64,000 nt of DNA from Escherichia phage vB_EcoM_FB. The notes under the pieces were generated by a model. That model was not told the origin of the DNA. It saw nothing but the letters and a program-made list of their open reading frames with translations, and ran no database searches. The stretch lies in sequence record MT682711.1. One strand, written 5' to 3'. How positions within the stretch are numbered: the stretch's first letter is position 1; each line of letters opens with the position of its first letter. A program made the translations under genes and the position numbers. Shown here piece by piece: positions 10,558 to 61,825 of the stretch.

Positions 10558-11631
10558 TTAAGATTTCAAATAAGTTATATAACTTTCCAACCATTCAATC
10601 ATTTCTGATTTTTCGGTGGCAGTCATAGGATTAACTATATCCTTAAAACTGTTAAGCATTACTTGGGACGTAACTTTTGTTTTTTCGGATTTTACCAATT
10701 CAATAGAGCTAAGTTTTTTAATATGCTCTTCTTTGCTTTCGACTACTAATTTAATAGCTCTTCCGTCTTTAATAGCTTTATTAGCCTGTCCACGGGTCAT
10801 ACCATAAAACTCTTCTAACTCAGAATTGGATAAAAATTTTGTGCCTGAAGAAACATCTTGGAATTTATAACGTTGACGAGAAATATCAGGCGGAAGGCCC
10901 CAGCGGCCTTTAATAAGGTCGAGGGTTCCTTGAAGAAGCCTGGTTAGATGGTTGCTACTTAAATCATTATTACGAGCAAACTCGTTTTGATTTAGAACTT
11001 CCACTGCTTTATTTTCTTCATAGTCCCATATAGTAAATTTAGAGCAATTATAGGTAACAGAATGTTTTTCTGTTCTAGAACGGCCTAATTGCCACCCAGA
11101 TTTAATATACTCAGCAACTTCATCGGGTTTAACATACTTAGTTTTCTGGCCGATTTTGTACATCATGGGCCAGGAAACGTGTTCGTTTCCTTTATCAAAT
11201 TCCATCCATCTTGCAATATCATCTTCGGATAAATCGTCAAAGCAGTTAGGGTTGAAATGACCGCCAATTTGTTTGTTGAGCCACATAGGGTCTCGTAAAA
11301 CATCATTGGCTAATTGCATTTCCATTTCGGCCATAAGGGTTTTACCCCAAGTAGGATACCACCCTACAATAAGGTACTCTTTAGGGCTTATACCCTTTTC
11401 TATCATTGCGTTTACTTCATTAGATGATGATGTATAGGTTTTCCAATCAGATTCCTCAAATCCTTTTTTAGGACCACGCTTAAATGTGCATGGCGCGGCT
11501 TTGATTCGTTTCCAAATCTTTTTAGCGCCAACATATTTTTTACCGTCTTCAAAAGTGATTACGTAGACAAACCCGATATGGTTTTTAATATCGGTTTCTT
11601 CAAATACCGCCCAATGACCAAAATCTTGCAT
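10558..11631 (-). CDS. GIY-YIG homing endonuclease (I-TevI-like N-terminus)
   Basis: GFVYVITFEDGKKYVGAKK GIY-x10-YVG motif near N-terminus; 357 aa. Confidence 0.6.
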   Translation of the reverse strand: MQDFGHWAVFEETDIKNHIGFVYVITFEDGKKYVGAKKIWKRIKAAPCTFKRGPKKGFEESDWKTYTSSSNEVNAMIEKGISPKEYLIVGWYPTWGKTLMAEMEMQLANDVLRDPMWLNKQIGGHFNPNCFDDLSEDDIARWMEFDKGNEHVSWPMMYKIGQKTKYVKPDEVAEYIKSGWQLGRSRTEKHSVTYNCSKFTIWDYEENKAVEVLNQNEFARNNDLSSNHLTRLLQGTLDLIKGRWGLPPDISRQRYKFQDVSSGTKFLSNSELEEFYGMTRGQANKAIKDGRAIKLVVESKEEHIKKLSSIELVKSEKTKVTSQVMLNSFKDIVNPMTATEKSEMIEWLESYITYLKS

Positions 11632-37264: not shown

Positions 37265-37663
37265 TTATTTCATTTTTGCGAGGCAAATTTCATTGGCTTC
37301 CCATTGAGCTTGCTTAATAATAGCTTTGGATACAGGAGCCCTTTGGCCATAAGTTTTTGACGTTGAGAGAACAATACATTTGTTTGCCTCATTATGCCAG
37401 CCCCGTGATTTTTCGCCATGAGTACCTTTAACTACAGCTGACACCTCAACAGAGCAACCACCATCAGAAATCTTGGTTTCGACAATCCATTCATTTCTTT
37501 CGACAGCTTCAAGTTCTAATCTAGTTTTTTCTTCATACATGGCGGCCCAATCAGTTTTTGCCAGGTTGAAAGTGAGAGCTTTCTCCAATTCTTTGGCAGC
37601 TTTTTGTTGTTCAGGCGTTAATGAATTGTACAACTCTTGCATTTCTTTATCTTCGATATTCAT
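37265..37663 (-). CDS. hypothetical protein
   Basis: 132-codon ATG ORF. Confidence 0.5.
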   Translation of the reverse strand: MNIEDKEMQELYNSLTPEQQKAAKELEKALTFNLAKTDWAAMYEEKTRLELEAVERNEWIVETKISDGGCSVEVSAVVKGTHGEKSRGWHNEANKCIVLSTSKTYGQRAPVSKAIIKQAQWEANEICLAKMK

Positions 37664-37720
37664 TATGTTCTCCTCAAATTATGGGCTCATAATATCTTAA
37701 TCATGAGCCCATGTAAACAA

Positions 37721-37984
37721 TTATTTCATATTATTGAAATAATCTTCCGCATCAAAATCGTTATCATGATAAACTTTGGTAGACGATTTAGCATAACCTT
37801 CAGCTGAGAACATATTAACCACAACCTTAATTGTATACCATTGTCCGTCTTCATTACCCATTACAGCATACGTTTCATATACCGGATGTTCAGGACCGAT
37901 AACCTTAATATCGTTAACAGTAGCACCAAATTCTTCAGGAACGCATTTCATAAAGAAATTAAACAATTCACCGTAATTATCCAT
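37721..37984 (-). CDS. hypothetical protein
   Basis: Track start GTG; ATG at 37984 with AAGGAG upstream. Confidence 0.45.
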   Translation of the reverse strand: MDNYGELFNFFMKCVPEEFGATVNDIKVIGPEHPVYETYAVMGNEDGQWYTIKVVVNMFSAEGYAKSSTKVYHDNDFDAEDYFNNMK

Positions 37985-38008
37985 TTTACTCTCCTTCACT
38001 CTGTTGTT

Positions 38009-38048
38009 TTGATAGGTCTATAGTATCATGTTTAAAGGAGGTGTAAAC
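38009..38048 (-). promoter_or_regulatory. early promoter-hairpin cassette (PeSL-like)
   Basis: TTGATAGGTCTATAGTATCA..TGTAAAC. Confidence 0.5.
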
Positions 38049-38071
38049 ATCTTTTTAAACTTTTTAGAAAC

Positions 38072-38099
38072 AAAAAAGGCCCAACCTTTCGGAAGGGCC
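38072..38099 (-). terminator. rho-independent terminator candidate closing the tRNA region
   Basis: GGCCC..GGGCC hairpin followed on the minus strand by six U. Confidence 0.5.
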
Positions 38100-38149
38100 T
38101 TTAACCTAGGGTAACCTTGTCGGGGTTTCACCTGCTAGGCAAGTGTTTG

Positions 38150-38240
38150 TACGATACGCCGGGATTCGAACCCGGTTATTAAGTAGTTGACGCTACTTAA
38201 TATTTTAAAAGGCCATATCTCGACCATATCCGAACGTTCC
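38150..38240 (-). ncRNA. structured small RNA candidate with tRNA-like T-arm
   Basis: Minus-sense GGTTCGAATCC T-loop between CCGGG/CCCGG and a 9-bp hairpin; no canonical acceptor pairing found. Confidence 0.25.
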
Positions 38241-38409
38241 GTCAAAAACGCTACTCGGCTTACGGCAAAGATATTTCCTCGAATCGATAATTCTGTGCGC
38301 CGTTTAAGCTGTGATATAAGGGGTCATTAACAAAACATAAAGATTTATTAATGTCGGTCCTTAAACAGGGAACTTCAGTCCGACGACTTACCGGTAGCGA
38401 CCCGGTTTC

Positions 38410-38760
38410 TTAATATTCTTTTAAAGAATCAATATATTCACGGCGTTTACGCCACAAATCAATTGCTTCATACGCGGATTCAGCATTTCGAATTAGCCGG
38501 CATTTATGTAAAGACTTATGATTTTGATATTGTGTAGATAACGGAATTGTATCTAAAAGGTCTTTACGATCAAAATATTCGTAACCATCTAAACCAAATG
38601 AACGATTTTTGAGAAATTGCCAATGACCATATTCGTTTTCGACATAAACATAATCTGCATGCTGATAAAGCAAATTAATTACACGTTCAGAAATAACAGT
38701 ATCATTATGATTAAAATAGAATGTTAAATCATGAACTACTAAATAAACATTACCTTTCAT
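38410..38760 (-). CDS. hypothetical protein
   Basis: 116-codon ATG ORF with GAGGAA upstream, inside the tRNA cluster. Confidence 0.45.
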   Translation of the reverse strand: MKGNVYLVVHDLTFYFNHNDTVISERVINLLYQHADYVYVENEYGHWQFLKNRSFGLDGYEYFDRKDLLDTIPLSTQYQNHKSLHKCRLIRNAESAYEAIDLWRKRREYIDSLKEY

Positions 38761-38778
38761 ATTTTCCTCACTTATAAT

Positions 38779-38854
38779 TGGTCGAGGCAGTAGGGATCGA
38801 ACCTACGACCTAGGACTTAGAAGGTCCTTGCTCTTCCTTCTGAGCTATGCCCCG
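38779..38854 (-). tRNA. tRNA-Arg (anticodon UCU), CCA encoded
   Basis: 76 nt cloverleaf folded by hand: 7-bp acceptor with one G-U, GG in D-loop, anticodon loop CUUCUAA, T-loop TTCGATC. Confidence 0.8.
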
Positions 38855-38857
38855 TAA

Positions 38858-39490
38858 TTAAAATTTCATTTTTCGACCTTTAAACCATCCTTCTGGAATT
38901 GGGTCAGTTTTCTTAATACGTTTAGAAACTTTTTCATCTAATGAATGAATCCACATCATACCAAATTGGGAATTCTTTTCGCCCTGTTGATGTTTATTTC
39001 TGGCGTGAGATTCTTTCATTTTATTAATAGTTTCAGGAGTATGATGCTTATTTAAAAATCTGCTATTATTTAAAAATTTTTCCCTGTATTCAGGAGTTGA
39101 CCACAAGCGTTTAAATACATTTGAACCATGTTTACGATATTTTTCTTGAAGTAAAATATCACTTTTAAAACGTGACTTAAACGATTTAGCTCCTTTTAAA
39201 CTAGCGTCTTTCTTCTGGTTTAGCATCCCAGGAATATTTATATGGTCCCAACCACCTTCACCACCTAATTTCAAATTATAAACATCAGGGCGCTTTAAAA
39301 ACTCTTCAGTCACAATATTCTTTTCTGACTCAAACATAGAGGTTTTATCGTCAAAGAACTCTCTAATATTTCTTTAGAAAAATTTTCTATACCATACTTA
39401 TCTTGGGCTCTTTTTAATAATTTACCAGAACCCATATATCCATCATCTAAATTTTCGGTAGAATGAGCGCCTATATAGATTTTTATTATT
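38858..39490 (-). pseudogene. decayed GIY-YIG (Seg-like) homing endonuclease gene
   Basis: Upstream frame encodes ..[23 protein letters not shown] with no ATG, stop immediately upstream; downstream 159-codon frame continues the homology after a frameshift at GAGAG. Confidence 0.6.
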
Positions 39491-39567
39491 AATTTTATTT
39501 GTTATTTTATAAATGTAATGGAACATAAATATCTCCTATTTCTAAGAGTATTTATGTTCCCAAAATA

Positions 39568-39638
39568 TGGCCCTGGGTGGAATCGAACCACCATCCAGCG
39601 ATTATGAGTCGCTCGCTTGACCGTCCAGCTACAGGGCC
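39568..39638 (-). tRNA. tRNA with CAU anticodon (Met or Ile2 type), CCA not encoded
   Basis: 71 nt: perfect 7-bp acceptor GGCCCTG/CAGGGCC, anticodon loop CTCATAA, T-arm GGTGG-TTCGATT-CCACC. Confidence 0.7.
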
Positions 39639-39699
39639 TTAATTCTATTATGAAAGGCTCTTTGAGGGAAGAACCTTTGGTAATAGAGGGTACTTATTA

Positions 39700-39724
39700 A
39701 TAATAACACACAACTCTTAAAGCA
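39700..39724 (-). promoter_or_regulatory. MotA-box middle promoter candidate upstream of the tRNA cluster
   Basis: Minus strand TGCTTTA, 12 nt, TATTAT. Confidence 0.45.
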
Positions 39725-39733
39725 TATTACTTG

Positions 39734-40114
39734 TTAACCTTCATCAACAATAGTGTGGGTATTGGCATTAACAATTTGCCACCAGTCGAAACGATTAGAA
39801 CCGTATTGAGGCTTATTCTCGTTTTCTTTAATGATATCACGCAGTTCATCTTCAGTCGCGGCCTTTGCGATTAAGTCGGCATAACCGCCACGGGGATAAT
39901 AGTTATCACCAGCAAAGAGTAAAAAGTTTGTTTTAATATTCTTGAATTCTTCAAGAGTAATAACTGTTCCAGATGGTTGGACAATATCTACGTAACTATA
40001 TCCTAATTTCTGGGCTTCATTTACTGCTTCAAGCAGGGTGTCATGGGCCCATCCAATTTGACAATCCGGTTTTTCAGATGGGTTGGCTTGATAATCTGCG
40101 TACACTTTATACAT
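39734..40114 (-). CDS. hypothetical protein
   Basis: Start at ATG 40114 with AGGTGA upstream. Confidence 0.45.
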   Translation of the reverse strand: MYKVYADYQANPSEKPDCQIGWAHDTLLEAVNEAQKLGYSYVDIVQPSGTVITLEEFKNIKTNFLLFAGDNYYPRGGYADLIAKAATEDELRDIIKENENKPQYGSNRFDWWQIVNANTHTIVDEG

Positions 40115-40115
40115 T

Positions 40116-40301
40116 TTACTCACCTTTAGAGATTTTATCCATAACGAAAGAGATTGAACCAATTAAAAATGCCACTACTAAAGAGATTGTATTCTCAGAA
40201 GTTGTAAGCAAATCCAACATGAATCCTGCAAACATACTAAAACTAAAAGTGGTAATAGCAATAAGGGCAGTAGCATTTCTAATTAATTCACAACGTTTCA
40301 T
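40116..40301 (-). CDS. small membrane protein
   Basis: Track start TTG; ATG at 40301 with GGAG upstream. Confidence 0.4.
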   Translation of the reverse strand: MKRCELIRNATALIAITTFSFSMFAGFMLDLLTTSENTISLVVAFLIGSISFVMDKISKGE

Positions 40302-40326
40302 TTTATTCTCCAATCACTCATTTGTT

Positions 40327-40367
40327 TTGATAGGGCTATAGTATCATCACTAAAGCCCGTTGTAAAC
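40327..40367 (-). promoter_or_regulatory. early promoter-hairpin cassette (PeSL-like)
   Basis: TTGATAGGGCTATAGTATCA..TGTAAAC. Confidence 0.5.
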
Positions 40368-40369
40368 AA

Positions 40370-40630
40370 TTATTTTAGATAAATTGCATATTTTTTATAG
40401 CCAGCTGTCTCGTGGCGCAACCCTTTGTCATTAGCAAAGCGTTCAATATTATTAATTTGGTTTTGGTCGAGTTCTGAAATATCAAATACAAAAAAGTTTC
40501 TCTTATTGCCTAAAGTTACGTGATTAGTCAAATCGATGTTATAGAGATGATTTATATTATCAATCACGGTCTTAACAGATTTGTTAATTTTTACTTCCTC
40601 ATTAAGAATAAATTCTTGATAAGTTTTCAT
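40370..40630 (-). CDS. internal-protein-like gene (IPI position) with capsid-targeting leader
   Basis: N-terminus MKTYQEFILNE; 86 aa. Confidence 0.55.
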   Translation of the reverse strand: MKTYQEFILNEEVKINKSVKTVIDNINHLYNIDLTNHVTLGNKRNFFVFDISELDQNQINNIERFANDKGLRHETAGYKKYAIYLK

Positions 40631-40656
40631 TTTGGGTTCCGTTTGGTTAGTTTGTT

Positions 40657-40696
40657 TTGATAGGTCTATAGTATCATATTTATAGACCTTGTAAAC
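40657..40696 (-). promoter_or_regulatory. early promoter-hairpin cassette (PeSL-like)
   Basis: TTGATAGGTCTATAGTATCATATTTATAGACC..TGTAAAC. Confidence 0.5.
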
Positions 40697-40703
40697 AACT
40701 TTT

Positions 40704-41381
<678 letters not shown>

Positions 41382-41389
<8 letters not shown>

Positions 41390-42143
41390 TTTTATTTCCT
41401 AATAATTTATCAATAGTAGTGTATAGTTCAGAAAGGGTTCCGTTATTTTCAACAACAACGTCACCAGGTAAAATTGGTAGACCCGCTTCAGTAATGTGCG
41501 AGTCTTGTACTTGACCGGTATCAGCGCGAACTACATGAATAATCGTAGCACCCATCGCCCTGAGCGAATCAATTTCATGTGTTTGACGAACATCAGGTAC
41601 GACATAGTATTTCGCATCAGAGTATATTTTATCAAAATAGTCTAAAGCGAATAACTTAACCCAATACATTTTATCAAATCGGTTAACAATAATATCAGTC
41701 CCAAGGGTCTGCATGAGACGACGTACTGACCAATTGTTATTTTTATTTATTACTTCAAACAGTTGGTCTTTTGTTTCTTCAGACAGATACTGGACTGGGG
41801 TAAGACCATAATGATATGCGGTACGAACATCCATTCCTGGAATAGGAAGGATATTATTCAGTTTGACAATAGCATTTTCAAAGATATCAATCACATCATA
41901 TGGTTTTAAAGGAATGATTTCTTCACGGTCGTAACCGATACCTTCAAAACAGTTAAAATCTAGTTTAGGCATGTAACTACGGTCGAATACAGGGTCATCA
42001 GAGATGTATTCATAGGCTTCAGCCAGATACTTTTTAATAGGACCTGCGAGCTGAAATTTTACCGAATCCATATTTTCGATTACATAGTTAGCAACGGTAT
42101 CCTTACCGCTACGTTTGATTCCTACAATTGATATTAGTTTCAT
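41382..42143 (-). CDS. 1: dNMP kinase gp1
   Basis: MKLISIVGIKRSGKDT P-loop N-terminus; T4 position. Confidence 0.85.
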
Positions 42144-44134: not shown

Positions 44135-44737
44135 ATGCTCTTCTCATTTTTCGATCCTATAAATTACGAATCAAAAACAGTCAAGCCAGATTCCGGCTCA
44201 TTAACTGATGCCGATGTACTGAGCGTACCGATGACTGATATATTTAGAAACTATAAAGAATATTTTGATAAAGTGGCTAAAAATTATACACTTAAAACAT
44301 ATTATATCAGTGGGGCCCCTCGTCCAGAAGAATTAGCCCATCAACTTTATGGTAACGTGCAATTATATTGGATCCTTTTAATGTGTAACAATATCTATGA
44401 CCCTTATTACGGCTGGATTACAGGCCAAGAATCTGCGTATCAAGCAGCTATTCAACGTTATGCTACTGCAGGCGGAAACCAAGTCCTTTATCATGTCAAT
44501 GAAAAGGGTGAGAAATTCTGGAATCTAGTAAATACTCCGGAAAATCCTTATACTTGGTACGATAAAGGTGATACAGAAAAACGTTATCCTCAATATGAAG
44601 GTCCTTTGGCTGCAGTAGATATTTACGAGGACGCCATTCGTAAAAATGAATATAAGCGCGAAATAAAGATTATAGACCCTAATGACATCGAGTCCTTTGT
44701 TTCCGCTTTAATTAGAGAAATGGAGAAGTCACTCTAA
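44135..44737 (+). CDS. 53: baseplate wedge protein gp53
   Basis: MLFSFFDPINYESKTV.. N-terminus and 200 aa as recalled for T4 gp53. Confidence 0.8.
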   Translation: MLFSFFDPINYESKTVKPDSGSLTDADVLSVPMTDIFRNYKEYFDKVAKNYTLKTYYISGAPRPEELAHQLYGNVQLYWILLMCNNIYDPYYGWITGQESAYQAAIQRYATAGGNQVLYHVNEKGEKFWNLVNTPENPYTWYDKGDTEKRYPQYEGPLAAVDIYEDAIRKNEYKREIKIIDPNDIESFVSALIREMEKSL

Positions 44738-45249
44738 TGTTTTATTACGTCTATAAAATAACCAATATAATTAATGGTAAATTTTATATCGGTGCTCATA
44801 GTACATCAAATATGGATGACGGTTATATGGGCTCAGGTAAATTAATTAAACGCGCTATACTAAAATACGGCATTGAAAATTTCAAAAAAGAAATATTAAA
44901 ATTTGTTGATTCTAAAAAAGAAATGTATGAACTCGAAAAAGAACTTGTTGTCCTTACTGAAAATTCATACAATTTAAAACCGGGCGGTTCCGGTGGGTTT
45001 TTAAAACATGATAACTTTAAAGGCAGGTCCCATAGTCAGAAAACCAAAGATATTATGAGCGCTAATAACTCAGGCAAAAACAATCCTATGTATGGTAGAA
45101 AACGAGACCAACACGGAGAAAAAGCACCTAATTATGGTAAAAAGTGCTCTGAGGCTAAAAGAAAATTACTTTCTGAAAAATCTAAATCCTATTTTGAAAA
45201 CCTTCAAACCATAACTAAAAAATCTCGGCTTTGGTCCTACATCGGTTGA
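44737..45249 (+). CDS. GIY-YIG homing endonuclease (Seg-like)
   Basis: FYYVYKITNIINGKFYIGAHS GIY-YIG motif, [14 protein letters not shown]-like Gly/Lys repeats. Confidence 0.8.
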   Translation: MFYYVYKITNIINGKFYIGAHSTSNMDDGYMGSGKLIKRAILKYGIENFKKEILKFVDSKKEMYELEKELVVLTENSYNLKPGGSGGFLKHDNFKGRSHSQKTKDIMSANNSGKNNPMYGRKRDQHGEKAPNYGKKCSEAKRKLLSEKSKSYFENLQTITKKSRLWSYIG

Positions 45250-45369
45250 AACTAGATATGTATCAAGACATATTAAAAAGCTAGGATTAGATTTTTATAA
45301 ATTTAATCGTGATATAACAGAAACTAATGTTTCCATAGTTAGAAATATTTTAGAACAAAGGAAAGCGCT

Positions 45370-47157
45370 ATGATTAACATGTCTGATAATGTAAGTTGGT
45401 TCGTCGGTGTAGTTGAAGACCGAATGGACCCGCTCCAACAAGGCCGAGTACGCGTGCGCGTATGGGGTATGCATCCTTACGAAAAGGTCCAAGGTCCTGT
45501 AAAAGGCCTTCGTACAGAGGATTTACCGTGGATGTCCGTATTAATGCCTACATCTTCTGCCTCTGTTTCTGGTATCCAAACCGCTATGACTGGTATGGTT
45601 CCAGGTACTCAGGTTTATGGGCACTTTCTTGATAAGTGGAAATTAAACGGGCTTGTCCTCGGTACATATGGTTCCGCTTCAAGACAAAAGGCTAATCCTA
45701 ATGAAGGTTTTAGTGACCCGACAGGTCAATACCCACTTTATTTGGGTAATGATGCTGCAGCACTAAACCGAGGTGGTGAAGTTGGATACGATGCCACTTC
45801 CAACGTAATACAAGATGCAAACACCGATGTAGGTATTAATCCTGATGGTTTAGATTTGAGCCAGGTTAAGCCTGATGATAATCCTAATTTCACAATAGAA
45901 AACATGCTTCACCGTGATGAAGGGCTTCGACTGAAGGTATATTGGGACACCGAAGGATACCCTACTATCGGTATAGGTCACCTTATTACACCACAACCTA
46001 TTAGAGATATGAATCAAATAAACAAAATATTATCTAATCAGGTAGGACGAGAAGTTAAAGGTAACCCTGGTGCAATATCAATGGACGAGGTTTCTAAATT
46101 ATTCCAAGACGACCTTAAAAAAGTCCAAAACGATATAGGCAGGCATAGTGTTGTAGGTCCTGTTTATAATAAAGAAAACCGTTCGAGACAAATGGCTCTT
46201 GAAAACATGGCTTTCCAAATGGGATTGGGCGGCTTGGCTAAATTCCGTGGAATGCTTAGTGCAATGCTAATAGGCGATTATAAAAAGGCATTTGAGGAAG
46301 CTCGTAATTCAGTATGGTTTAACCAAACTAAAGGCCGTGCATCAAGGGTGTCAATGATTATCCTCACAGGTAACATGGAATCATATGGTATTATGGCCCC
46401 TAAAGAAAGGTCATTTAATGGCCGTTCGTATAGAATGATTCAAACCTTTGTGGCCCCTACAAATTCAGACCCTGCCGACCCGTGGACTCCAGAAGACACA
46501 AGGATTCTTTTTAAAGAACCTGATTCTAGTTATAAAGGCGAATATCCATATGTCCAAACCATGCAAACTGAAGGCGGGCATATCCAAGAATTCGATAATA
46601 CTCCAGGGCAAGAACGATACCGTTTAATCCATCCTACCGGTAGTTATGAAGAAGTTGCTCCTGATGGACGTAAAACTTCTAAGACGGTAGCCGATGGTTA
46701 TTATATGACCCAAGGCGATTCAAATACTTATGTTGGTGGTAATAATAAAGTCAACGTTGGTGGCGATGAAACCTATTATAATATGGCAAACGTGCGCCGT
46801 CAAACTGATGGGTCTGAAAGCATTCATATTCGAGGGAATGAAACCAAAACTGTAGAAGGTAATGGAACTCTGCTTGTTAAAGGAAATGTTAAAATAGTTA
46901 TTATGGGTACTGCTGATATAACTGTTGAACAAGAAGCATATATTACGGTTGAAAAAGATACAACAGTTAATGTCAACCAGAATGCAGATATAAGCGTTAA
47001 ACAAAAGGCCACAATCAATGCTCAAAATATGGATGTAAATGTCGAACAAGATTTAAATTTTGCAGCGACGAACATTAATTTAAACGCATCAAATACTGTG
47101 CATATGGATGGCGGTTCATTAGCTAAAGTATCTGGTGGCAACGTACAGGTCGGTTAA
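45370..47157 (+). CDS. 5: baseplate central spike gp5 with lysozyme domain
   Basis: N-terminal OB-like region, internal lysozyme block (HRDEGLRLKVYWDTEGYPTIGIGHL), C-terminal V-N-V repeat beta-helix. Confidence 0.85.
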   Translation: MINMSDNVSWFVGVVEDRMDPLQQGRVRVRVWGMHPYEKVQGPVKGLRTEDLPWMSVLMPTSSASVSGIQTAMTGMVPGTQVYGHFLDKWKLNGLVLGTYGSASRQKANPNEGFSDPTGQYPLYLGNDAAALNRGGEVGYDATSNVIQDANTDVGINPDGLDLSQVKPDDNPNFTIENMLHRDEGLRLKVYWDTEGYPTIGIGHLITPQPIRDMNQINKILSNQVGREVKGNPGAISMDEVSKLFQDDLKKVQNDIGRHSVVGPVYNKENRSRQMALENMAFQMGLGGLAKFRGMLSAMLIGDYKKAFEEARNSVWFNQTKGRASRVSMIILTGNMESYGIMAPKERSFNGRSYRMIQTFVAPTNSDPADPWTPEDTRILFKEPDSSYKGEYPYVQTMQTEGGHIQEFDNTPGQERYRLIHPTGSYEEVAPDGRKTSKTVADGYYMTQGDSNTYVGGNNKVNVGGDETYYNMANVRRQTDGSESIHIRGNETKTVEGNGTLLVKGNVKIVIMGTADITVEQEAYITVEKDTTVNVNQNADISVKQKATINAQNMDVNVEQDLNFAATNINLNASNTVHMDGGSLAKVSGGNVQVG

Positions 47158-60235: not shown

Positions 60236-61825
60236 ATGATTAACAAATTGGAACTTAGTGAGTTACCATTTGTTGACGGCGTACCTGATGCTCCTCAAAA
60301 GCGTATCCAATGGATACGCGAGGGTGATTGTATGTCTGCAGCAAAAACAAAATACGGCAATGAAGGTAATTTGAACGCTGCTGCTTTAGGAGTTCAGAAA
60401 AACGTTGAAGCTCTTGATGCGAATGATTTGAAAACCGCAGATAAAGTTAACGAACTGGTAGAAAACGTTAATAATATCAATGATGCCTTAGAAATGGCTA
60501 CGGATATTTCCGTCATCCAACAAATTGAGAAAACCCGTGTTGATATCGTAGAGCTTAAGAGAGTAGAAGGCGAAACCACTACTGGGCTAAACAATTTAAC
60601 CATAAATTTAGACCACCTAAAAGAAGACGTTGGTTACCATGACCCTTTACAAGATGGCCCATATTTAACTGTACGTGAAAATATTGTTCTTCTTAAAACC
60701 GAAATAGGTCATTATGAAAACCAGGATATAAATGGTAATCCGTTGCCTCCTGGTGAAACCAGCGAAGCCACCGGTATGAAACGTCGCATCATTGATAATA
60801 CCACTCAATTGGTCGACCATCGTCTTCGCATTGATACCCTTGAAAGGAATTATGAAGATTCTGACGTCGGGCAACTAGGTATTAAATTAAATGAAATTCG
60901 TGCTGAACTTGGGCCCCATTCCGATACGGTAGGTAAACAACAGGCTTATACCCGAATTTCTGTATTAGAAACGGCTGCAATTAATTTCAATACATCTATC
61001 GACGAAATTAAGACTAATATTGATTTCTCCGGTATGCCTATAAAGGACCGAGTAACTACTTTAGAAAGCAAAACTCTTACCCTAGAAAATTCAGTCAACG
61101 TTGATTTAAAACCTCGTGTAACATCAATTGAAACCCAAATAGGTTCTGAATCAACTCCTACTTCTATTAATGGACGTTTAAGCGGTCTTCGTACTGATGT
61201 AAATGACCTTAAAACCATAGTGGGTGTTAGTTCAAGTGATGGCTTACGTTTCCAAGTTACTGATATCAACCGCCGTTTAGGTAGTGAAGTATCTCCGGCA
61301 GCTGGGACCATTAATAAGCGTTTAAATGACGTTATTATCCAAGCAAACCAATCTACTTCATCTATCCAGGATATTCAAGTAGAAATTGGAAATAACCAAT
61401 CCGGTATTAAGGGTACTTTACTTAAACTCACCAATAAGGTTGACGGGACAAACCCTAACGGTACTACTGTAGAAGAACGTGGTCTTATTAACGCGGTTAC
61501 TTCTTTAGAAACCCAGATGTTAGGTAAGTTGAATGATGCCCCTTCCGATGGTAAGCTTTATGCTCGTCGTAATGCTACGTGGACCGAAGTTCCTAACGTT
61601 TCTACTGAAATAGGGACCGTTAAAGCTGATTTAGTTGTTACCGATGGTAATGTGGCAGCTTTAACTTCTAGAGTTACTACAGCAGAAGATAAAATCACTG
61701 CATTAGAAACTGAACTTGCTAAACGTCCACCAGTGGCTCCAGTTGCTGATGGACTTCCATATGTTCTTGTTGATAATGCGTGGGTGCTATTGTCAGATTT
61801 TGTGACTTTAAACCCAGCACCATAA
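60236..61825 (+). CDS. wac: fibritin (whisker antigen control) with foldon-like C-terminus
   Basis: N-terminus ..LPFVDGVPDAP..; long coiled-coil; C-terminal ..DGLPYVLVDNAWVLLSDF foldon-like. Confidence 0.8.
   Translation: MINKLELSELPFVDGVPDAPQKRIQWIREGDCMSAAKTKYGNEGNLNAAALGVQKNVEALDANDLKTADKVNELVENVNNINDALEMATDISVIQQIEKTRVDIVELKRVEGETTTGLNNLTINLDHLKEDVGYHDPLQDGPYLTVRENIVLLKTEIGHYENQDINGNPLPPGETSEATGMKRRIIDNTTQLVDHRLRIDTLERNYEDSDVGQLGIKLNEIRAELGPHSDTVGKQQAYTRISVLETAAINFNTSIDEIKTNIDFSGMPIKDRVTTLESKTLTLENSVNVDLKPRVTSIETQIGSESTPTSINGRLSGLRTDVNDLKTIVGVSSSDGLRFQVTDINRRLGSEVSPAAGTINKRLNDVIIQANQSTSSIQDIQVEIGNNQSGIKGTLLKLTNKVDGTNPNGTTVEERGLINAVTSLETQMLGKLNDAPSDGKLYARRNATWTEVPNVSTEIGTVKADLVVTDGNVAALTSRVTTAEDKITALETELAKRPPVAPVADGLPYVLVDNAWVLLSDFVTLNPAP

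Follow-up and report, generated by a model that had tools for sequence, protein, structure and literature searches.

Between two tRNA genes of Escherichia phage vB_EcoM_FB (sequence record MT682711.1) lies an open reading frame of 159 codons which resembles the end of a homing endonuclease gene, and the question raised by this locus is what became of the beginning. The window, to which all positions below refer, is the whole analysed stretch of 64,000 nucleotides. The original prediction saw here a decayed Seg-like gene, a relic of the segB insertion known from phage T4. The analysis described below points, with a probability of about 85%, to a recently inactivated segB allele which, in the Dhakavirus vB_EcoM_FB, would have been imported from a Tequatrovirus, broken by replication slippage and carried passively since then.

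A segB gene in three pieces

The elements of the locus, all on the minus strand, are as follows:

38858..39526, minus strand: the whole segB pseudogene, from the native ATG (39526-39524) to the TAA (38860-38858), delimited by alignment with five intact segB genes
39533..39537, minus strand: Shine-Dalgarno sequence AGGAG, 6 nt 5′ of the native ATG, read directly from the sequence
39482..39526, minus strand: first piece, codons 1-15, in the native frame (frame A) shared with the 159-codon reading frame
39480..39484, minus strand: lesion 1, a run of five A (T5 on the plus strand), one A more than the A4 of the aligned intact relatives
39364..39480, minus strand: second piece, codons 16-54 (IYIGAHS...SKEIL), the GIY-YIG catalytic core, in frame B
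39443..39445, minus strand: premature stop TGA, met from the native start after 27 codons
39359..39364, minus strand: lesion 2, (AG)3, two nucleotides more than the (AG)2 of the aligned intact relatives
39361-38858, minus strand: third piece, in frame A, EFFDDKTS followed by the 159-codon reading frame (39337-38858)
38858..39337, minus strand: the 159-codon reading frame, SegB residues 63-221, comprising the end of the nuclease domain and a NUMOD3-type DNA-binding region
38779..38854, minus strand: tRNA-Arg(UCU), 3 nt downstream of the segB stop
39568..39638, minus strand: tRNA-Met/Ile(CAU), of Dhakavirus-type sequence

Reading of the sequence bore out that the 159-codon frame is real, that it encodes the C-terminal part of an endonuclease and that its ATG, preceded by GATAAAACCTCTATG, lacks a Shine-Dalgarno sequence; the strand, left unstated before, is the minus strand, and GenBank lists the product as hypothetical protein FB_0141. 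A peptide of 39 residues had been placed upstream in another frame, at 39338..39490; it is indeed present, this range being approximate (the actual one is 39480..39364), and, as proposed, it aligns with residues 16-54 of the Seg-like protein encoded at 44737 (82% identity, E 2e-21). The suggested lack of an ATG, with a stop just upstream, is correct for frame B, which has no ATG and a stop 8 codons upstream of the middle piece, but not for the gene, whose native ATG stands in frame A behind an AGGAG that is invariant across all aligned relatives.

The segB pseudogene measures 669 nt, compared with 666 nt in intact relatives, and differs from them in length at exactly two places (+1 and +2), A4 and (AG)2 being found in every intact relative. 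The aligned genes include those of JEP6, 235Ecol030PP, IME537 and RB32, with T4, CJY920 and PTE-Eco15 added later; T4 segB is of the A4/(AG)2 type and carries neither insertion. Lesion 1 shifts the frame just 5′ of the YIG motif (I16-Y17-I18-G19), and lesion 2 restores it, such that codons 16-54 are out of frame with both adjoining segments, as seen by six-frame translation and direct reading, while the C-terminal 167 codons (E55 to F221) are in the native frame, the 159-codon frame beginning at M63. The meeting of two frames at GAGAG, attributed earlier to a small indel, was thus located properly (AGAGAG, 39359-39364), but it is not the sole lesion, the extra A at 39480-39484 being the second. 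Nowhere do the GIY-YIG motifs, Y17 and G19 among them, share an uninterrupted reading frame with the DNA-binding domain. Because the catalytic and DNA-binding parts share no single frame, the locus is filed as a segB pseudogene and not as a functional SegB member.

Removal of the three inserted bases yields a repaired segB gene encoding 221 amino acids. Its product is identical to T4 SegB (NP_049745) at 206 of 221 positions (93.2%, E 3e-159), to JEP6 SegB at 98.6% and to that of 235Ecol030PP at 97.3%, and to SegB of the Dhakaviruses LHE83, AnYang and IME540 at about 78%. The gene order tRNA-Arg, segB, tRNA-Ile/Met(CAU) is that of the T4 annotation, and JEP6 and RB32 were also compared. Both the position between two tRNA genes, now identified as tRNA-Arg(UCU) and tRNA-Met(CAU), and the kinship with T4 segB, which likewise lies beside tRNA-Arg, had been foreseen. 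[quoted passage not shown] The assignment to the SegB family is based on orthology to SegB of T4 and T6, both characterised experimentally, because the repaired protein scores just under the Pfam thresholds for GIY-YIG (22.1, cut-off 22.6) and SegE_GIY-YIG (24.3, cut-off 25); the paralogue at 44737 reaches 27.1 in the same test, above the threshold.

The design is that of T4 and T6 SegB, a GIY-YIG domain at the N-terminus being followed by a C-terminal DNA-binding region of NUMOD3 type (Brok-Volchanskaya et al. 2008, PMC2330249; Chihara et al. 2026, PMC13096335), and, as in the T4 system, the adjoining tRNA genes contain the GGTTCRANTCC recognition core. Unlike T4 SegB, the FB frame is broken twice, the YIG motif is not translated together with the rest, and activity and homing of the allele are predicted to be lost. 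The setting differs too: as a Dhakavirus, FB has only two tRNA genes, whereas T4, a Tequatrovirus, has eight.

Two repeat expansions and their reading

Both insertions are one-unit expansions of short repeats, a pattern which suggests that A4 became A5 and (AG)2 became (AG)3 by replication slippage. The first and third pieces share a frame because +1 and +2 sum to +3. A meaning behind this sum was considered and rejected: a stop lies inside the shifted stretch, and either lesion alone kills the gene. Since that stop codon separates the two insertions, the sum is probably a coincidence. Two lesions accompanied by a single private substitution and adding up to exactly +3 are nevertheless mildly unusual, and would not be predicted under pure neutrality. 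Alleles with one insertion alone, which might reveal the order of events, were sought by exact pattern: neither the A5 nor the (AG)3 context had a match in IMG/VR, and in JGI metagenomes (AG)3 had none, the one match to A5 there being discarded as an unrelated AT-rich chance sequence.

It might be argued that the real gene is intact and that one or both insertions were miscalled in the deposited genome. Lesion 1 is, after all, a change in homopolymer length, the second Seg-like gene also carries an additional A in an A run, and other public segB records contain single frameshifts, one of them being flagged UNVERIFIED. However, a dinucleotide insertion would be an atypical platform error, and both insertions recur in three other assemblies, two of them from a clearly different phage. 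The exact 159-residue frame was found on 4 contigs in public assemblies, and A5 together with (AG)3 is present at the loci in ENA ERZ27280550, Logan SRR12228472 and Logan ERR2241765. Over 11.3 kb the SRR12228472 sequence matches the window at 100% identity and by this measure is the same phage, assembled independently. The ERZ27280550 and ERR2241765 contigs, on the other hand, lack a seg gene between gp53 and gp5, and they have a gp5 of 88% identity and flanks diverged by 3-10%, which by sequence marks them as a phage different from FB. The same indels in independent assemblies speak against a sequencing error at the junction, which the original prediction had named as grounds for its dismissal.

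The remainder of the window tells against miscalling as well. In a comparison with the closest relative, LHE83, 89 other genes, with 16,763 aligned residues from about 50 kb of coding DNA, are free of frameshifts and internal stops, and segB is the only genuine gene with internal stops, all other flags being due to window edges, antisense frames or mosaic ends. This survey employed a greedy non-overlapping set of LHE83 reading frames combined with a stop-codon check; the full set of six-frame LHE83 frames is unsuitable here, as antisense frames flag falsely and tblastn reads across the compensated segB frameshift. The FB segB allele is real and heritable, being found again in datasets obtained independently and in another phage lineage, although these datasets could in principle share an origin in related laboratory stocks. 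A miscalled record is accordingly a most improbable explanation.

Along these lines, the second Seg-like gene of the window deserves attention:

44737-45373, plus strand: Seg-like paralogue, whose A run at 45217-45222 has one A more (A5 to A6) than in IME540, KIT01 and P479

This gene had been taken as an intact comparator, which it is not: its own +1 A frameshift ends the protein at 170 residues, compared with 211 in IME540, KIT01 and P479, with a loss of 41 residues, and its last 50 codons follow in the +1 frame, ending at a TGA that overlaps the gp5 ATG. It forms an insertion between gp53 and gp5 that neither LHE83 nor the ERZ27280550/ERR2241765 phage possesses. An exact look-up of the 170-residue protein gave no match, though one Logan contig carries it. 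Three slippage insertions were found in the window, all in these two Seg-like genes.

Two further loci were noted in the course of this survey. At 10558-11631, on the minus strand, an intact SegE-like GIY-YIG homing endonuclease of 357 residues (Pfam PF19835, E 5e-34; phrog_7363) occupies the place held by gp49, endonuclease VII, in LHE83 and AnYang; tblastn of LHE83 gp49 gave no match in the 64-kb window, and a SegE-like gene stands at the gp49 place also in Bp7, PSD9, E33 and others. The product of 60236-61822, on the plus strand, is the orthologue of a 720-residue LHE83 structural protein, 96% identical over residues 1-492 and sharply divergent thereafter, a pattern that by sequence marks its C-terminal end as mosaic and not as frameshifted.

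Broken segB genes occur elsewhere. In a spread sample of 60 records, drawn from 202 matching SegB, segB is split into pieces in three, namely PTE-Eco15 (PQ352352), CJY920 (PQ349265) and a T4 variant (OL964745), with small indels in otherwise normal T4-like genomes, each break being known from its deposited record alone. The segB gene of PTE-Eco15 has gained an A and that of CJY920 has lost one nucleotide, at positions that differ from those in FB, and neither contains A5 or (AG)3; judged from these alignments, both indels are events independent of the FB lesions. In OL964745, a T4 variant of 159.8 kb, segB was seen as four tblastn pieces.

The gene could also be thought to escape its own lesions by programmed recoding. 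A +1 shift on AAA-AAU, with tRNA-Lys re-pairing on the A5 run, followed by a +2 shift on GAG-AG, with tRNA-Glu re-pairing on the next GAG, would release a trickle of full-length SegB and throttle a toxic nuclease. By inspection, the P-site tRNA could re-pair perfectly at both sites and the recoded product has the native sequence; SegB is, moreover, toxic when over-expressed and thought to require tight control (PMC13096335; PMC2330249). However, the frame is uninterrupted in every diverged relative and the shift sites are not conserved, the RNA folds downstream of the two sites do not differ from shuffles (z = -1.3 and -0.3), and neither a slow codon nor an upstream Shine-Dalgarno-like stimulator can be made out. 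It would take two rare events, one after the other, and one of them a +2 shift. Programmed frameshifting, held in reserve by the original prediction as the observation to be set against it, finds no recoding signal here, present or conserved, and would be very surprising.

The age of the lesions bears on the reading as a pseudogene. Repaired segB differs from that of JEP6 at 10 positions and from that of 235Ecol030PP at 25, and it forms a patchwork of these two intact alleles, with N121S as the sole private substitution. Because there is only this one, the gene must be regarded as freshly disabled and not as decayed; neither accumulated substitutions nor relaxed constraint after inactivation are seen beyond it, and by this count decay has not yet had time to become visible. 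Of the description as a gene both inactivated and decayed, the former stands, by virtue of two frameshifts and a stop after 27 codons, and the latter does not.

A different fate would be a split gene, in which the 159-residue DNA-binding fragment is made and selected, binds the TΨC-arm sequences of tRNA genes and, for example, protects these genes against SegB from co-infecting Tequatroviruses or regulates the locus. The C-terminal part remains open and has returned to the native frame, the dead allele has persisted across two phage lineages, and SegB core motifs are found in the phage's own tRNA-Met, tRNA-Arg and rnaC/D-like region. Translation of the fragment is doubtful, however, as its ATG lacks a Shine-Dalgarno sequence, an overlapping frame of 41 codons ends 28 nt past this ATG, so that translational coupling is unlikely, and no promoter-like signal rises above chance upstream, the promoter and terminator scan at the segB locus having yielded results at chance level. 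One private substitution leaves no time for visible selection, and since the inactivation is so recent, an open frame of 159 codons is expected by default and is no evidence of selection. A selected fragment is therefore an unlikely, though not the least likely, alternative. A shade less likely still is the broader proposal that the doubly frameshifted allele is a maintained state, be it through a shielding fragment conferring anti-homing immunity or through two-step recoding with trace nuclease, with the cassette still spreading. The reading as a freshly disabled gene is retained in the following.

A probably imported block at a tRNA target

The relic was not simply that of a T4 insertion. 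The gene is a segB orthologue, as envisaged, but it sits in a Tequatrovirus-like block within a Dhakavirus genome, and the segB of Dhakaviruses themselves is only 78% identical:

38070..39567: Tequatrovirus-like block inside the Dhakavirus backbone, containing an rnaC/rnaD-like region, a 116-residue reading frame, tRNA-Arg and segB

The sequence from 38070 to 39643 is collinear with, and 95.4% identical to, that of the Tequatrovirus JEP6, while the flanks of the block are 92-96% identical to Dhakaviruses and only 84-90% identical to JEP6 or unmatched there. The backbone of the window is 91-95% identical to the Dhakaviruses VR5, LHE83, JS10 and IME08. The body of tRNA-Met is the Dhakavirus version and the bases immediately 3′ of it are of JEP6 type, and for this reason the right junction is placed at about 39568-39584. 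It adjoins the SegB core motif GGTTCGATTCC at 39579-39589, inside tRNA-Met/Ile(CAU). The overall count of this motif in the window is at the chance level, but its matches fall in tRNA genes, and SegB recognises the core when cutting the 3′ ends of tRNA genes (PMC2330249). Dhakaviruses devoid of segB, such as IME08, have tRNA-Arg, tRNA-Asn and tRNA-Met at the same place, and tRNA-Asn is the preferred SegB target (PMC2330249).

Several observations concern the remainder of the block. An Rfam scan of 37500-40200 found only the two tRNAs above threshold. The segment 38064-38410 is a non-coding homologue of rnaC/rnaD of T4, the genes of the species 1 and 2 RNAs, with 88% identity to T4; it matches no Rfam family and contains a perfect tRNA TΨC-like motif at 38162-38172. 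Its 78-nt core (38070-38147), whose position matches the left end of the imported block, is 97-99% identical in the six relatives in which it aligned as a segment of its own, five of Dhakavirus type and one unclassified. Between this region and tRNA-Arg, at 38410-38760 on the minus strand, lies the frame of 116 residues (phrog_3355, uncharacterised), whose product had no Pfam hit. Of the relatives examined at this locus, only the Tequatroviruses JEP6, 235Ecol030PP and IME537 and the phages with dead segB gave a match to it, and it is absent from the other Dhakaviruses examined.

Read from these identity patterns, which also suggest the direction and mechanism of transfer between the genera, the cassette probably entered the Dhakavirus from a Tequatrovirus donor by SegB-type homing with flanking co-conversion. 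The incoming DNA would have replaced the tRNA-Asn target, with repair junctions at the tRNA-Met 3′ end and in the conserved rnaC/rnaD-like region, and segB would have been disabled after entry.

The dead allele has apparently travelled further. From 38070 to about 41740, FB and the ERZ27280550/ERR2241765 Dhakavirus show 3 mismatches in 3.7 kb, whereas beyond 41740 the divergence jumps to 5-16% per 250 bp; at the left flank the two are separated by a 1.3-kb indel. To judge by this step in divergence, the tract from 38070 to 41740 is a recent mosaic exchange that carried dead segB along. As both phages carry the two insertions on a near-identical tract, the insertions would predate the exchange or the shared ancestry of the tract, and the allele has since presumably been carried passively by ordinary recombination.

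In this context one may recall I-TevIII, encoded in the T4 nrdB intron, a defunct homing endonuclease mobilised in trans by MobE (PMC2790892). Both cases concern naturally inactivated homing endonuclease genes of T-even phages that persist and move in the absence of an activity of their own. I-TevIII differs from FB segB in being intron-encoded, in belonging to the HNH family and in having been inactivated by truncation; furthermore, no trans-acting nuclease was found for FB segB, and ordinary recombination would suffice for the spread.

Predicted consequences of the inactivation

Published mutants help to predict what the lesions mean for the phage. The T6 SegB variant Y17A/G19A is catalytically dead and non-toxic and drives no segmental amplification of the tRNA locus (PMC13096335), and deletion of the catalytic domain of T4 segB lowered inheritance in crosses from 99.6% to a background of 65% (PMC2330249). 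As Y17 and G19 cannot be translated in frame with the rest of the protein, we infer by analogy with these mutants that the FB allele is homing-incompetent; it would give no active nuclease, and both homing and SegB-dependent amplification would be lost. The assessment of lost function joins the FB sequence to the behaviour of the T4 and T6 proteins.

For annotation, it follows that the hypothetical protein in GenBank is the tail of a disabled segB gene. The locus represents an early stage in the decay of a homing endonuclease gene, an ordinary event of a known kind, and leaves current understanding unchanged. A natural segB null whose locus is otherwise intact could be of use as a control strain, because SegB activity has recently been shown to drive the amplification of tRNA and anti-defence loci. 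What the locus offers beyond this is a clean, dated view of the life cycle of a homing endonuclease, in which a Tequatrovirus cassette would have invaded a Dhakavirus at a tRNA-Asn/tRNA-Met target, segB would have been knocked out almost at once through repeat slippage, and the dead allele would then have spread passively.
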